From: Nitrososphaerota archaeon | GTDB taxonomy: Archaea; Thermoproteota; Nitrososphaeria; Conexivisphaerales; UBA164 | Direction: 5' to 3' | DNA length: 64,000 nucleotides | NCBI GenBank assembly: GCA_009903795.1 | Contig: WYER01000033.1 | Location: 23,001-87,000 of the forward strand | Made by a program: the position numbers and the translations under genes | Notes under the pieces: generated by a model | The model's database searches: none | Told to the model about the DNA's origin: nothing | The model's input: only the letters and a program-made list of their open reading frames with translations | Shown here: positions 5,437-28,035 of the stretch, one piece after another | Numbering within the stretch: the first letter of the stretch is position 1 | Layout of the letters: every line of letters starts with the position of its first letter

Positions 5437-6663
5437 ATGGGCGTAAAAATAGCCCTTATTGGAAAGACAAATGCAGGAAAGACTACGATATTTAACACTG
5501 TTACTGGCAGAAATGAACCTATAGGTAACTATATGTTTACAACTCAAAATCCGGTATCTGGTACGACTTACGTTACATCTCCTTGTGTACATAAAGAATT
5601 TGGTGTAATAGATAACCCAATAAACTCAAAATGCATCGATGGATGGAGGTATATACCCATAGAAATAATAGATTTACCAGGTTTGATAAAGGGCGCAAGC
5701 TATGGAAGGGGTTTGGGTACTAGGTTTTTATCTGAAGCCATGAAAGCTGATGCCTTTATTCATGTTGTAGATGCGTCAGGTAGCATAGATGAAGATGGAA
5801 GAATAGCTGAGCCTGGCACAGGTGATCCATTTAGAGATTATCAGGAAATAGAAGGAGAAATAGTCCAGTGGTACAAAAACCTATTAGAAAACAACCTAGA
5901 TAAAATACTAAAAAAGATAGAAACAACAAAGAATGAGCAGCAAGCTATAAACGTAGTTTATGAAACTCTTGCTGGCGTAAAAATAACAAAACTTCATATC
6001 ATTCAAGCACTCGAAGATATGGGGGTAAGTGTATACGACTTCAGAAGCATGAGTGATGAAAAACTTTGGCGTTTAGCTTCTTTGCTTCGCGATATTTCAA
6101 AACCTACTTTGATAGTAGCTAATAAAATGGATATACCAGTGGCTGATAGCGGTTTTAAGCAGCTTAAAGACAAGATAAAGGACAAGATAATAGTGCCTGT
6201 AAGCGCTAACCTCGAATTGTTACTTAAAAGGGCTGAACAGAAAGGTACGGTTAGGTATAATCCAGCTGAAGAAAATTTCTTAGTAATAGACAGTTCTAAT
6301 TTATCTAAGGACGAAAAAAAGGCCTTAGATTTCTTTAACAAGTTTCTGATAAGAGAAATGATGCGTGCAGGTACGCAGTTTGCCTTAAATGTTGCTGTTT
6401 TTAAACTTCTTAGGATGAACGTAGTATATCCAGTCGCAGATCCTAAAAAGCTTTCAGACAAAAAAGGTAACGTGCTTCCTGACGCTTATCTAGTGCCCGA
6501 TGGAAGCACTGTAAAAGACCTTGCCGAAATAATTCATAGCGAGCTTGCTGTTGGATTGCTTTATGCTATAGATATTAGAACAGGAATTAGGCTTCCGCCA
6601 ACATACCGCATCAAAGACAGGGATGTGCTACATTTAGTTTCTGCTACTAGAAAATCTAAATAG
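5437..6663 (+). CDS. ychF: Obg-family translation-associated NTPase (archaeal YchF-like) with C-terminal TGS domain
   Basis: GKTNAGKTT, YMFTT, DLPGLI, ANKMD, VLPDAYLVP TGS region. Confidence 0.9.
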   Translation: MGVKIALIGKTNAGKTTIFNTVTGRNEPIGNYMFTTQNPVSGTTYVTSPCVHKEFGVIDNPINSKCIDGWRYIPIEIIDLPGLIKGASYGRGLGTRFLSEAMKADAFIHVVDASGSIDEDGRIAEPGTGDPFRDYQEIEGEIVQWYKNLLENNLDKILKKIETTKNEQQAINVVYETLAGVKITKLHIIQALEDMGVSVYDFRSMSDEKLWRLASLLRDISKPTLIVANKMDIPVADSGFKQLKDKIKDKIIVPVSANLELLLKRAEQKGTVRYNPAEENFLVIDSSNLSKDEKKALDFFNKFLIREMMRAGTQFALNVAVFKLLRMNVVYPVADPKKLSDKKGNVLPDAYLVPDGSTVKDLAEIIHSELAVGLLYAIDIRTGIRLPPTYRIKDRDVLHLVSATRKSK

Positions 6664-6698: not shown

Positions 6699-6935
6699 AT
6701 GGAAAGCGAGTTATCTTATGCACAGATATACAGAATATTTAAAAAAAGTGGTGCTGAAAGGGTTAGTGATGAAGCCGTAAGAGAGCTTGCAAAATTTTTT
6801 CAAATTTATGGAGAAAAAATAGCCAAACAGGCCAATGAGTTGGCAAATCATGCAGGAAGAAAAACAATTAAAGCGTCTGATGTAAGACTTGCAATAAAAA
6901 ATATAATAAATATCGATTTAGATCAGTTAAAATAA
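6699..6935 (+). CDS. Archaeal histone (HMf family)
   Basis: RIFKKSGAERVSDEA...HAGRKTIKASD histone-fold signature. Confidence 0.95.
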   Translation: MESELSYAQIYRIFKKSGAERVSDEAVRELAKFFQIYGEKIAKQANELANHAGRKTIKASDVRLAIKNIINIDLDQLK

Positions 6936-7100: not shown

Positions 7101-8378
7101 TTAATCGACTGTTATCCATTCAGTGCTTTCTTTATCTAGGTTAAGAAATGCATAGCAACCACAATTTTTTATACTTGGTACTCCAACGCTCCAAACACCT
7201 CTGTAAATTAGATCTATTTTTTCTTTTCCACCTCCTAAGAAAAAGTGTTCTGGAACATCTTCAATAATTAACTTGTCTGAAATAGATGGAACAATGGGGA
7301 TCGAGCCTACAGTAGGTGCAAGGTGTCTGGTCTTCAGAAGTTTCTTTACTGCATATTCTTCAGTCATCCCGGCCGTTTTGAACATATAGTACGCGTTATA
7401 CAATAGAAAGCTTGATCCTTCAATGGTTAAATATGAAGGGTTGCTTAATAGCCTGACGTTCTGAGTAGAGTAAAGATCTTTTGCAATCTTATAGCTAACA
7501 GGTTTTTGAGGTAATGCCTTCCCAGTAAAATCCGCATGTCCTGGAATTATAACTTTTAATATCCTTTTTGGCAATGTTGATAGAAACTCTGAGAGCTTTT
7601 TATAGCCTTCAAGCGGCGATACGCCGTTTTTTATATAAGCTAGAGAGTCAACTAAATTCCCAAGGAAAAAGATACCATCAGGTTTGATCGCTTTTAAAGA
7701 ATCAAACAAATGCTCTACTTTGTTTGAACCGATCATAAGGTCACTTACCAGCGCTATCTTTCCTTTTAATTTTTTTCTTTTTACTTCTGGAAATTCAACA
7801 TCTTCAAAATCTGTCACAGAAAAATCTTCTGGGTTAATTTTTAGTGCCACGCATGATCCAGGTATGATTTCGTCAAAAATCTTTTTAGAAAAAACTTTTA
7901 ATTTAAATACACCTTTTCCATCATCAGCAAGTATTTTGTAATCATCGTTACTAATTTTTTGTAATATAAGAGCAAACGCCCACGTTTCATCTTTACCTTT
8001 GCTCTTTATATAATTTATATTAAAAAGGGGTATTTTGTTCGGTCTTTTTAACCAAAGTTCTTTCATTTTTTTAAGCCTGTCGTTTAGCATTATGTTTAAC
8101 TCTTCATATGTTGAAACCTGCATGCCATCTGAAAGAGATCTTTCAGAGTTTATTATTAAATTTGTTTTATCTATTTCAAGGTTTAGCCCAAAACTCTCTA
8201 TATCTTTAAGAGTGATAGTAAAGTTGTTAGGATCATATTCTTTTTTCTTTCTAATAACTTCAATAACACGCGGTATGAGTTCTGGCTGATCTTCTAAAAC
8301 TTTAACTAGATCTGGATGAATCTGAAAACCTTCATTTAATGCCGTAATTATCAAATCTTTTATTTCAATCGATGACAT
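7101..8378 (-). CDS. polB: DNA polymerase D small subunit DP1 homologue, exonuclease motifs degenerate
   Basis: ALNEGFQIHPD N-terminus, ALPQ, LSNP, RHLAPT..IP...D.LII..VP; phosphoesterase motifs read SDLMIGS/GNLVDS/PGHAD/YNA/FLGGG. Confidence 0.85.
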   Translation of the reverse strand: MSSIEIKDLIITALNEGFQIHPDLVKVLEDQPELIPRVIEVIRKKKEYDPNNFTITLKDIESFGLNLEIDKTNLIINSERSLSDGMQVSTYEELNIMLNDRLKKMKELWLKRPNKIPLFNINYIKSKGKDETWAFALILQKISNDDYKILADDGKGVFKLKVFSKKIFDEIIPGSCVALKINPEDFSVTDFEDVEFPEVKRKKLKGKIALVSDLMIGSNKVEHLFDSLKAIKPDGIFFLGNLVDSLAYIKNGVSPLEGYKKLSEFLSTLPKRILKVIIPGHADFTGKALPQKPVSYKIAKDLYSTQNVRLLSNPSYLTIEGSSFLLYNAYYMFKTAGMTEEYAVKKLLKTRHLAPTVGSIPIVPSISDKLIIEDVPEHFFLGGGKEKIDLIYRGVWSVGVPSIKNCGCYAFLNLDKESTEWITVD

Positions 8379-25899: not shown

Positions 25900-28035
25900 A
25901 TGTTGTTTGAAGATGCGCTAAACATAAGAAAGGAAACAGACATTGACCCTCAGGTCGATATTGAAATAAAGGACAAGTTTTATTCTATAAATAAACCAAC
26001 ATTTACCAAAAAAGACTTTATAAATTATGCTGAGCTCAAAGAATATCTAGTTAAGCTAGTAAGCGAATCTTACGGAGGTCATACTTCCACTTATTATGAT
26101 CCACTTAAAGGCACAAAGATCAATCCAATTTTTTCAGATTATTTTGGACAGTGGGAATCCGATTTTATTTATTTTGTAAAAGGCATAAAGAATCCTAAAG
26201 TTGAGCCTCCTAAAGGTACCGGCTATATTGTTTTTAGTATAACAAGCAGGTTCATAATCAGGTTTGTTGATGTTAAGGCACCTGTTGCTGTGGCAAGCAG
26301 CAAACTAGCTGACATTATGAACTTAAAATCGAACTCCTTGCCTGTTAAAATAGGCACATCATTTTACAGACTCTATTTTTCTAAAGACGTTAAAGGCCCT
26401 ATTTTCTTTGACGGCTACACGGCTTCTTACGAGCAAAAAGGGAAGGTTATAAGTTTTGGCGAACTTCTTCTTCCCATAAGTTCATGCTCTGATATTTTTG
26501 GGCAGAACTGCAAAAAAAGCGTACAAAAATTTAGCGAGGCTTTAGAAGAAGCAAGAACAACTGGATACTTAAGCCCATACTTTTCTTTTCCAAGATCGAT
26601 TTTTAAAATTAAAATTCTTGATGAAGAAAAAATTGAACTAAACGATATATCTATTCAGACATTAATCAATTCCCATGTGCCTTTCGTCATTGAAAAAGAA
26701 AAGGGTAGTATAAGGCTCATTGATGTTGAAGACGAAAGGACAAAAGCCATTTTACACATAGCAAAAAGGGGCCTCGGAGGTATAAACTTATATGAACCCT
26801 ACAGGGGAACTTTTAAGGTTTTCATTAGGGTAGACAAAGATCTTCATGAAGTTAGCAAATATGACGGGGTTCTCGCTTCTAAAAGTCCTTCGACTAACTC
26901 GGGTTTAAGATTAAGGTTATGTGAAAATTGTAGCAGGACTACGCCTTTTAGAAAATGCGAAAGATGCGGATCGAAAACAGTTGAAATATATTATTGTAAG
27001 AGATGCGGTATATACACAAAAGAAAAAATTTGTCCCAAATGTGGTGCAACAACTTCAGAATCTTATATAAATAATTTAAATTTGAACGAAAGCTTAAGTT
27101 ACGTTGCTAGCAGGCTAAAAATAACAGGCTTACGAAATCCAGCAATTCCTAAAAATTTATTCAATGAACCAGAAATTCCAGATAAGCTTGTGTTAAGGCA
27201 AAAAAATTCATTGTTAACAAGCAAATATGGAATTATATTAACGCCAATTAAGTTGCAGGCCGGAGATATAAACGGAAGCGAAATTGAGATGCCTGCTAAG
27301 TATGAGCCTCTTATCAAGGAGATTAAATCTTTTATTTATGAAGAATTAGTTAGCGTCTACGGTAAAGAAACAGATATTGAGAGTATAGGATCAAGCATAA
27401 TTATTTTTAACAAACCTATTAATGCCGGAATCGAGCTTAAGATAAAAGGTTACAGGCAGGGCAACGAAGCTATAGTAAATCCTAATGTTCTGGAATTTGC
27501 AGGTCTTGGCGTTCTTGATAACCAGGCGTATTTTGCTTTAAGTGAAGATGTAGCATTAAACTGCATATGCCCAAAGGGTAAGGGAATTATCATTTATAAG
27601 TCAGCAGAAAGCGTCGATCTTTATCCTGTTAAATTAGATTACATGAGAACTCCAATATACCAGCAAAGCATAACCGAAATAATAAAAGGCGTTATAAATT
27701 TACTTTCAAACACATATCCTGATGTTTTAAACGAAAGAGATTCAATTTCATTGATAAAGAAAATTGAAGATATGTTCGTCAGGCAATCTTATATTTGCGA
27801 AAAGTGCGGCAAAAAGCTCAAGGTTCCTACGTTAAATATGCGATGCCCCGTATGCGGCTCAAAGTTAAGACCAAGGTTTACATCTTCTGATTTAAACAAT
27901 TTTATCTTGCAATTAAATGAGCTAGCAGAGAACTTTCAGGCTTCTCCTTACAAGGAGATAATTGAGATCTATGTTAACAACGTAAAAAACATCTTTAGGA
28001 CTTCGAGTCAGATGAGCATCGGAGATTTCTGGTAA
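25900..28035 (+). CDS. polC: Highly reduced DNA polymerase D large subunit DP2 homologue, catalytic motif absent
   Basis: DP..D.EI N-terminus, four central CxxC pairs, PE.P.K..LR.K segment, F.RQ...C..C...P.L...CP.CG C-terminal Zn finger, terminal QMSIGDFW PIP-like box. Confidence 0.8.
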   Translation: MLFEDALNIRKETDIDPQVDIEIKDKFYSINKPTFTKKDFINYAELKEYLVKLVSESYGGHTSTYYDPLKGTKINPIFSDYFGQWESDFIYFVKGIKNPKVEPPKGTGYIVFSITSRFIIRFVDVKAPVAVASSKLADIMNLKSNSLPVKIGTSFYRLYFSKDVKGPIFFDGYTASYEQKGKVISFGELLLPISSCSDIFGQNCKKSVQKFSEALEEARTTGYLSPYFSFPRSIFKIKILDEEKIELNDISIQTLINSHVPFVIEKEKGSIRLIDVEDERTKAILHIAKRGLGGINLYEPYRGTFKVFIRVDKDLHEVSKYDGVLASKSPSTNSGLRLRLCENCSRTTPFRKCERCGSKTVEIYYCKRCGIYTKEKICPKCGATTSESYINNLNLNESLSYVASRLKITGLRNPAIPKNLFNEPEIPDKLVLRQKNSLLTSKYGIILTPIKLQAGDINGSEIEMPAKYEPLIKEIKSFIYEELVSVYGKETDIESIGSSIIIFNKPINAGIELKIKGYRQGNEAIVNPNVLEFAGLGVLDNQAYFALSEDVALNCICPKGKGIIIYKSAESVDLYPVKLDYMRTPIYQQSITEIIKGVINLLSNTYPDVLNERDSISLIKKIEDMFVRQSYICEKCGKKLKVPTLNMRCPVCGSKLRPRFTSSDLNNFILQLNELAENFQASPYKEIIEIYVNNVKNIFRTSSQMSIGDFW

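Follow-up and report, generated by a model that had tools for sequence, protein, structure and literature searches.

Most archaea are held to depend on PolD as their essential replicase, and its small subunit DP1 and the C-terminal domain (CTD) of its large subunit DP2 are ancestral to the B subunits and polymerase CTDs of eukaryotes, where the non-catalytic Pol epsilon module is essential for CMG. Here, we analyzed two PolD-like genes in a 64,000-nucleotide stretch of DNA (hereafter the window; contig WYER01000033.1, positions 23,001 to 87,000, assembly GCA_009903795.1) from a hot-spring archaeon of the order Conexivisphaerales in the class Nitrososphaeria. One of them, DP1-like, codes for a small subunit in which nearly all exonuclease residues are replaced; the other, DP2-like, codes for a much shortened large subunit which lacks the polymerase triad. 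In Pyrococcus abyssi, the metal ligands of DP1 are D360, H362, D404, N450, H497, H560, and H562, with H451 as the essential proton donor, and the H451A change alone yields the exonuclease-deficient PolD that serves as standard variant (PMC10721889, PMC6355029). The catalytic triad of P. abyssi DP2 is N954/D956/D958 (PMC10721889).

Several described systems depart from this canonical enzyme. In eukaryotic B subunits, an inactivated phosphodiesterase (PDE) domain persists in a structural role and binds a CTD with Zn fingers (PMC4104785, PMC7544198). In Aenigmatarchaeota, Baldrarchaeia, and Heimdall LC3, DP1 is kept without DP2, a PolB is fused to a DP2-type CTD, and DP1 is inactive in some members (PMC7544198, PMC12680538). 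Thermoprotei (Crenarchaeota) and Nitrosocaldus have lost PolD or DP2 outright (PMC7544198). The closest case is that of Kazlauskas et al. (2020, NAR 48:10142; PMC7544198), who described a group labeled "Nitrososphaeria_GB_GCA_002499005-like" (metagenome-assembled genomes UBA160 and UBA164) with an inactivated DP1, no active DP2, and no PolB with a CTD; the basis was these two genomes and one related genome, and conclusions were called premature. The only lineages listed with DP1 but no DP2 in a 2025 replisome survey are Baldrarchaeia and Aenigmatarchaeota; the lineage of the window is not mentioned in the passages concerned (PMC12680538). A 2024 study of non-ammonia-oxidizing Nitrososphaeria gives DTJL01, Conexivisphaeraceae, and UBA164 as families of Conexivisphaerales, and the word "polymerase" is absent from it (PMC10833072).

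The window belongs to the same lineage as the group of Kazlauskas et al. and resembles it in having a dead DP1, no active DP2, and no PolB with a Zn-finger CTD. Because the same state was reported there for UBA160 and UBA164, our finding is a further member of a reported group, whose core has appeared in print before for this genus. The miniaturized DP2, its Zn-III and PCNA-interacting protein (PIP) motifs, selection, and the gradient across the order are not described in the main-text passages on this group; an inactive DP2 may be among the contents of Supplementary Figures S15/S16 and Table S6 of that paper. In the literature on polymerases of Conexivisphaera(les) and Nitrososphaeria, no printed account of the mini-DP2, of PIP retention, or of an order-wide gradient was found, part of which the supplements of PMC7544198 may hold. 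What we add is the gradient across the order, a mini-DP2 that has been retained along with its interaction motifs, evidence of selection, and a testable adaptor hypothesis.

Compared with canonical PolD (P. abyssi 6hms and 8ppt), the pair in the window has the same N-terminal helical, OB, and PDE domains in DP1, the same two-barrel core, three Zn modules, C-terminal helical bundle, and PIP motif in DP2, and the same predicted subunit interface. Unlike canonical PolD, both of its active sites are destroyed, DP2 is shortened to 711 amino acids, and scores fall far below the cut-offs of the NCBIfam equivalogs. The dead PDE subunit and strong structural matches recall the eukaryotic B subunits and the C-terminal half of Pol epsilon with Dpb2, but here the CTD is carried by a separate dead DP2 rather than fused to PolB, and the origin is independent, within Nitrososphaeria. 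As in Aenigmatarchaeota, Baldrarchaeia, and Heimdall LC3, DP1 outlasts DP2 catalysis; in contrast to them, the lineage of the window retains DP2 as an unfused miniature and has no CTD on its PolB. Replication presumably depends on family-B polymerases, as in Thermoprotei and Nitrosocaldus, whereas the PolD genes of the window are kept under selection.

The DP1-like gene (7101..8378, minus strand), an inactivated PolD small subunit, is a single open reading frame (ORF) of 425 codons plus stop with an ATG start. Its product matches PF04042 (DNA_pol_E_B) over residues 208–382 (48.2 bits vs. a gathering cut-off of 29.1; E 1.1e-12) and just misses the cut-off of the calcineurin-like metallophosphoesterase family PF00149 (19.7 vs. 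21.5 bits). All five NCBIfam DP1 equivalogs (NF003116–NF003120) match it below their cut-offs, the best being NF003118 with 110.2 bits vs. 445. A sequence search of PDB returned archaeal DP1 chains as the best matches (6knb_A, E 5.3e-18), with human Pol delta subunit 2 ranking next (E 1.9e-6). The AlphaFold2 model, built on a 62-row alignment, has a mean pLDDT of 93.3 and a pTM of 0.82 and consists of four N-terminal helices, an OB barrel, and a phosphodiesterase sandwich. Its top match in Foldseek is P. abyssi DP1 (5ihe_B, E 2e-26, TM 0.71); after archaeal DP1 come human Pol delta p50 and other eukaryotic B subunits (9ekb_B, E 1.8e-22).

All three domains of canonical DP1 could be located on the minus strand. 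The N-terminal four-helix domain (residues 1–62, 8193..8378; model helices 2–15, 22–30, 32–48, and 57–62) is the counterpart of DP1N and holds GFQIHPD. The OB-fold domain (approximately residues 91–200, 7779..8108) contains the beta strands of model residues 132–192 and aligns with the OB domain of DP1, and the PDE (Mre11-like) domain with the dead active site (approximately residues 205–425, 7104..7766) contains the PF04042 match. An earlier examination of the DNA without database searches (the sequence-only reading) had proposed that structural DP1 motifs and the reading frame are intact, and indeed GFQIHPD, ALPQ, LSNP, and RHLAPT each occur once, at residues 17–23, 288–291, 311–314, and 351–356; G17 is at least 90% conserved in a 12-row alignment with canonical DP1s. 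Antisense ORFs at 7684–7941 and 8035–8289 sit within the gene.

The active site was compared by alignment with active DP1s, taking the seven metal ligands and the proton-donor His of P. abyssi DP1 as reference. Seven of these eight exonuclease residues are substituted (H362M, D404N, N450H, H451A, H497N, H560G, and H562K), and the equivalent of D360, D213, alone is kept. Motif I reads SDLMIGS (residues 212–218, 7725..7745), with Asp kept and the ligand His replaced by Met, and in motif II, GNLVDS (residues 240–245, 7644..7661), the ligand Asp is replaced by Asn. Motif III is PGHAD (residues 279–283, 7530..7544), with His for the ligand Asn and Ala for the proton-donor His; the latter is the same change as in the engineered dead enzyme H451A. 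Asn takes the place of the ligand His in motif IV, YNA (residues 327–329, 7392..7400), and both ligand His residues of motif V, FLGGGK (residues 380–385, 7224..7241), are replaced, by Gly and Lys. The sequence-only reading had taken these strings for eroded forms of the five DP1 motifs; each string that it quoted occurs once in the translation, and they align where active DP1s have SDxHxGS, GDxVDG, PGNHD, HG, and GHxH. The best reading is that DP1-like would no longer be able to bind two catalytic metals or cleave DNA. Because a confident model with DP1 as top match goes together with the loss of active-site residues, DP1-like appears to have kept the fold and lost the chemistry.

The substitutions are not due to assembly. 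Contigs from DNA run X1 show no differences to the window over 7101–7745, 7762–7970, and 7968–8227, and near-identical contigs from run X6, which belongs to a different study, cover 7101–7743 without indels. Run X3, with 0.88 of the sampled words of the sequence but no contig placed on it, bears on the question in neither direction. The same DP1 substitutions occur in eight other genomes of the genus, and close relatives of the protein are encoded on public contigs, among them those of "Nitrososphaerales archaeon KMA_Bin22" (92% identical), "Nitrososphaeria archaeon F8S.bin.2" (91%), "Conexivisphaerales archaeon 4229S_bin6" (81%), and "Thaumarchaeota archaeon UBA160" (78%, residues 1–422). Independent contigs and shared substitutions therefore rule out an assembly artifact.

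The DP2-like gene (25900..28035, plus strand; 711 amino acids and stop) lies 17.5 kb from DP1-like on the opposite strand, and it is the dead DP2 which the sequence-only reading had placed some 18 kb away. Canonical DP2 has approximately 1150–1270 amino acids, and DP2-like scores 72.6 bits in NF003103 vs. a cut-off of 1269, with sequence likeness to DP2 confined to the Zn-I/II region and the C-terminal Zn-III region. The former polymerase active-site motif, canonically RRDCDGDE, reads GLGVLDNQ (27502..27525), and the triad positions are Gly, Leu, and Asn vs. (D/N)-D-D in 10 of 10 canonical references (RR(D/N)CDGDE). On the other side, the Zn-I/Zn-II cysteine cluster (residues 341–381, 26920..27042) matches DP2 residues 705–821 of 6hms_B; C341, C344, C353, and C356 are invariant, and C366, C369, and C378 are at least 90% conserved in a 33-row DP2 alignment. 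The Zn-III finger of the CTD, a DP1-binding element (C633, C636, C649, and C652, all invariant; 27796..27855), aligns with 6hms_B 1115–1159, and its KxRRxP loop reads KLKVPT. All eleven tracked Zn cysteines are thus invariant or at least 90% conserved. The protein ends in a PIP-like motif, QMSIGDFW (28009..28032), with an invariant Q704; the corresponding pattern Qxx[LI]xx[FY] is found in 28 of 29 DP2/DP2-like ORFs of the order, the exception being one ORF with an aberrant C-terminus.

The DP2-like model, also from 33 rows, has a pLDDT of 87.4 and a pTM of 0.85 and shows a two-barrel core, Zn-I, Zn-II, and Zn-III, and a C-terminal helical bundle, as expected of DP2. Residues 1–708 align with residues 17–1197 of P. 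abyssi DP2 8ppt_B (Z 21.8, rmsd 7.3, 567 aligned), residues 442–570 with the active-site barrel of RNA polymerases (Z approximately 6), and residues 607–700 with the CTD of human Pol epsilon 5vbn_B (Z 6.6, rmsd 3.2, 88 aligned). Because the model aligns end to end with P. abyssi DP2, DP2-like is predicted to be a compacted DP2 and not a fragment, that is, a miniaturized and catalytically dead PolD large subunit.

We also surveyed the remaining replication genes of the genome (1.36 Mb, 33 contigs, 92.5% complete). An intact DP1 paralog, on which the sequence-only reading would have been abandoned, was not found in it, with only one PF04042 match at E<=10. No other DP2 was found either, as there was no DP2 match near the cut-off beyond the weak match in the window. 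A weak match of the DP2 model on contig C10 is an HdrA-like flavoprotein by sequence and was rejected as DP2. The genome does have a family-B polymerase of 846 amino acids in which DIE, NGDSFD, and YNYTD (Exo I, Exo II, and Exo III) and DFASLYPS, KxxxNASYG, and YGDTDS (motifs A, B, and C) are readable. Judging from these motifs, it is an intact PolB1-type polymerase with its own exonuclease; orthologs are present in 34 of the 36 genomes of the order, including all 15 that are at least 90% complete. A second PolB of 622 amino acids (L003:330-2198(-) = G000:C3) has motif A DFDSEYPS and motif C YGDVDS and no recognizable exonuclease motifs; KLEDFLNL-type residues lie upstream of its C-terminus. 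Neither PolB ends in a cysteine-rich CTD. Genes for GINS and PCNA are present, that for Gins51 on contig C30 and that for PCNA on contig C3. The PolB1 orthologs of G077, G083, and G091 (genus g4) and of G045, G057, G063, G065, G048, G042, and G030 (family f2) have open frames of 1019–1709 amino acids, in which the match is split near query residues 581–630; the split frames look like intein insertions, of which the genus of the window has none.

Binding between the two subunits is supported by a model. For residues 85–425 of DP1-like and 575–711 of DP2-like, the predicted complex scored 0.77 vs. 0.21 for the best control, with an agreement between runs of at least 83% of contacts; 58 of 80 solved complexes and 2 of 110 mismatched pairs attained that mark. 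In the predicted interface, the Zn-III loop (640–647) lies in the groove between the OB and PDE domains, with the OB domain holding most of its contacts, and the C-terminal helices lie on loops of the PDE domain. The solved PolD interface likewise has Zn-III in the DP1 groove, and a role of Zn-III in DP1 binding has been described (PMC6355029).

To see how widely this state is distributed, 401 genomes of the class were sampled (five of them, flagged as unpublished, were used in the tally only), and PF04042 matched in 353. The 30 best-scoring DP1 loci of the class have all five canonical motifs in every case, and in family f5 all five genomes have canonical DP1 motifs and an intact DCDGD triad in DP2, which rules out a class-wide trait. 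In Conexivisphaerales, of which Conexivisphaera calida is a cultured member, DP1 was matched in 29 of 36 genomes, distributed over three families. Relatives with normal motifs, a further ground for doubt named by the sequence-only reading, were not found in the family of the window (f1): all 15 DP1s, including that of the window, have lost the His of motif I, the Asp of motif II, the Asn-His of motif III, and the second His of motif V. In family f2 (7 genomes), the motif III Asn-His is gone in 7/7, the second motif V His in 6/7, and the motif I His in 3/7. The 7 genomes of family f3 retain four of the motifs (I, II, IV, and V), and their motif III is PGECD throughout. Apart from the link with UBA160, it is a guess that f2, f3, and f1 correspond to DTJL01, Conexivisphaeraceae, and UBA164.

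DP2 is graded in a similar way. Genus g10 of f2 has proteins of 1151–1180 amino acids (one split ORF of 998) with D-G-D at the triad positions, and genera g5, g8, and g9 of the same family have 1067–1109 amino acids and no triad Asp (N-E-N, N-R-R, and R-S-V). In f1, genus g4 has an open frame of 845 amino acids (795 from the first ATG), and genera g1–g3, as well as f3, have 685–940; no triad remains in any of these. The full triad is kept in none of 23 DP2 rows from the order and close relatives, while the Zn cysteines and the PIP motif are kept across the three families. All 29 DP1 loci and the 30 DP2 loci that were read have open reading frames. Among the 16 other genomes of the family of the window, a reduced DP2 is present in 15 and DP1-like in 14, and dead DP1 and dead DP2, whose co-occurrence the sequence-only reading had proposed to test, are retained together there. 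DP1 and DP2 are 4–5 kb apart on one strand in f2 and 4–21 kb apart in f3 and f1, and the linkage loosens as the enzyme decays.

In a quick maximum-likelihood tree of 43 DP1s, f1 (support 100), f3 (100), and f2 (82) each lie on one side of a branch, and a branch with support 99 sets the three together apart from the 23 canonical and outgroup rows; the stem of f1 is long, and long-branch effects are possible. The comparison suggests that PolD has decayed stepwise across Conexivisphaerales, with the motif III Asn-His gone in all three DP1-bearing families and erosion complete in f1. The loss in motif III, and perhaps that of the D956 equivalent too, probably predates the order. Later losses may be partly independent, because g10 keeps two triad residues that are gone in other f2 genera. 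Canonical PolD is present in the sister lineages of the one Nitrososphaeria order that holds the inactivation, which is therefore independent of the eukaryotic one, as the sequence-only reading had suggested. The f3 DP1 loci (L062–L068, e.g., G006:C1:1460-1924) keep six of seven metal ligands and a strictly conserved PGECD next to a reduced DP2 without triad; this DP1 may be a modified nuclease without a polymerase partner.

Both genes are under purifying selection. In genome pairs within the genus with unsaturated dS (0.2–0.4), the ratio of nonsynonymous to synonymous divergence (dN/dS) is 0.066–0.164 for DP1-like and 0.095–0.153 for DP2-like. Together with the two models, this bears out the view that the folds are retained and selected.

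What survives in the pair are the elements by which canonical PolD holds its partners, and the subunit interface. In Thermococcus kodakarensis, DP1N consists of four helices and binds the C-terminal domain of Gins51 (Gins51C); the CMG helicase is stimulated by PolD (PMC9023282). Primase binding depends critically on the PIP motif at the C-terminus of DP2; PolD bridges primase and GINS, and primase is subsequently displaced by PCNA (PMC8096248). By analogy, DP1-like and the triad-less mini-DP2 would form a catalytically inert PolD heterodimer through the OB–PDE groove on one side and the Zn-III finger and C-terminal helical bundle on the other. The N-terminal helical domain of DP1-like would contact Gins51 of the CMG helicase and the PIP motif of DP2-like would contact primase and PCNA, as in Thermococcus. 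Such a dimer might persist as a structural component of the replisome, with DNA synthesis left to the intact PolB1-type polymerase. As the most economical explanation, we consider it moderately probable that the pair is a non-catalytic adaptor in a PolB-driven replisome.

Several points weigh against an adaptor role. The contacts with GINS, primase, and PCNA, like the role itself, are proposed by analogy. Because comparable complexes have been solved, the good score of the predicted complex attests to likeness and may stem from the model having memorized solved structures of PolD and Pol epsilon; the pLDDT of the partner is 58. Predicted interface residues are not more conserved than the rest in the family (0.57 vs. 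0.57; 2817 of 5000 random subsets are as high), and the two DP1-contacting Arg residues of the P. abyssi KxRRxP loop are Lys and Val here and are gone in genera g2 and g4. Both proteins diverge faster than PolB1: relative to genome G034, PolB is 84% identical, DP1-like 58–59%, and DP2-like 51%. Contigs of a hot-spring RNA library, approximately 92% identical and free of indels, cover 7184–7844, 7913–8087, and 8150–8344; they give a weak hint that the gene of a relative is transcribed, and DNA carry-over is possible. Finally, two f4 genomes (G079 and G093; 86% and 68% complete) have PolB1 and no DP1 or DP2 match. The PolD-like pair may thus be dispensable in some relatives, and the loss of PolD in this order may have reached its end point in f4.

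A different use of the same inert pair is unlikely but deserves attention: it might have been recruited to a job outside the replisome, such as binding DNA 3' ends or damage without cutting, or regulating repair or initiation, with the PIP motif and the N-terminal domain used in another context. DP2-like keeps the claw architecture and many basic residues around Zn-III, the OB fold of DP1-like is intact, and a changed role would fit the faster evolution compared with PolB1; a function in repair or regulation has been put forward for inactivated archaeal PolB2 genes, too (PMC4104785). However, the neighbors of the PolD-like genes (a histone, a GTPase, an F420-type oxidoreductase, and a nucleoside phosphorylase) have no link to repair, and the retained elements are replisome contacts.

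It is rather improbable that DP1-like serves as a eukaryote-style B subunit on a family-B polymerase, the mini-DP2 being incidental. Such an arrangement would agree with the rank of eukaryotic B subunits as next-best structural matches after DP1, and it has a parallel in the DP1 of Aenigmatarchaeota and Baldrarchaeia, which binds PolBs with a DP2-type CTD (PMC12680538). Yet a cysteine-rich CTD is found on neither PolB of the genome, including the 846-amino-acid enzyme, and the group is described as lacking a PolB with a CTD by Kazlauskas et al. as well (PMC7544198). The CTD is supplied instead by DP2-like, which is retained together with DP1-like in the family.

We give very little weight to the view that both genes are functionless remnants on the way to loss, as in Thermoprotei: residues and DP2 length are progressively lost across the order, up to the two f4 genomes with no match, but the open frames and dN/dS of 0.07–0.16 contradict it, as do the confident folds and the cysteines and PIP motif kept across three families. 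Residual or altered catalysis by other residues is just as improbable, for although D213 is left in motif I, an Asp lies one position off the former triad (GVLDNQ), and a modified nuclease is conceivable for the f3 DP1, seven of eight exonuclease and all three triad positions are replaced here, largely by the non-metal-binding Met, Ala, Gly, Lys, and Leu, and H451A by itself already abolishes proofreading in P. abyssi (PMC6355029).

As for the genomic context of the pair, an archaeal histone gene (78 amino acids, PF00808, E 4.7e-15; 6699–6935, plus strand) is convergent with DP1-like, and a YchF/Obg-like GTPase gene lies upstream at 5437–6663. A thymidine/AMP-phosphorylase-like protein of 510 amino acids (PF02885, PF00591, and PF07831; 24325–25857, minus strand) is encoded divergently from DP2-like with a gap of 42 bp. 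Elsewhere in the class, several complete genomes of ammonia-oxidizing relatives have a canonical DP1 approximately 1.5 kb into the chromosome record, counted from its first base (e.g., G080:C1:1520-2116, G004:C1:1517-2110, G101, G212, G096, and G114), which suggests a conserved position next to the conventional start (origin or cdc6 region). PF04042 had no match in any of the 10 genomes searched of family f11, which we guess to be Nitrosocaldus.

With the core of the finding already in print, the added value lies in breadth and in a testable mechanism. Both subunits are selected after both chemistries have been lost, which implies that the PolD scaffold is valuable apart from catalysis. The DP2 proteins form a graded series, from full-length with two of three triad residues through full-length but dead, 845 amino acids, and approximately 700 amino acids to no match, and thus supply actual proteins on which to explore what contacts render a replicase indispensable. 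Tentatively, and with somewhat less confidence than in the adaptor role as such, Conexivisphaerales may be seen as preserving, in living lineages, successive intermediates of PolD's retirement. The proton-donor His of DP1 and one triad Asp of DP2 would have been lost in the ancestor of the order, each family would then have gone through its own erosion and shrinkage, and the dimer would have survived over family-level times as a non-catalytic tether between CMG/GINS, primase, and PCNA for a PolB replicase. If true, this would be an independent archaeal parallel to the module of the Pol epsilon CTD and Dpb2 and a model for the loss of PolD in Thermoprotei, and it would show that a replicase can be swapped without dismantling the replisome.

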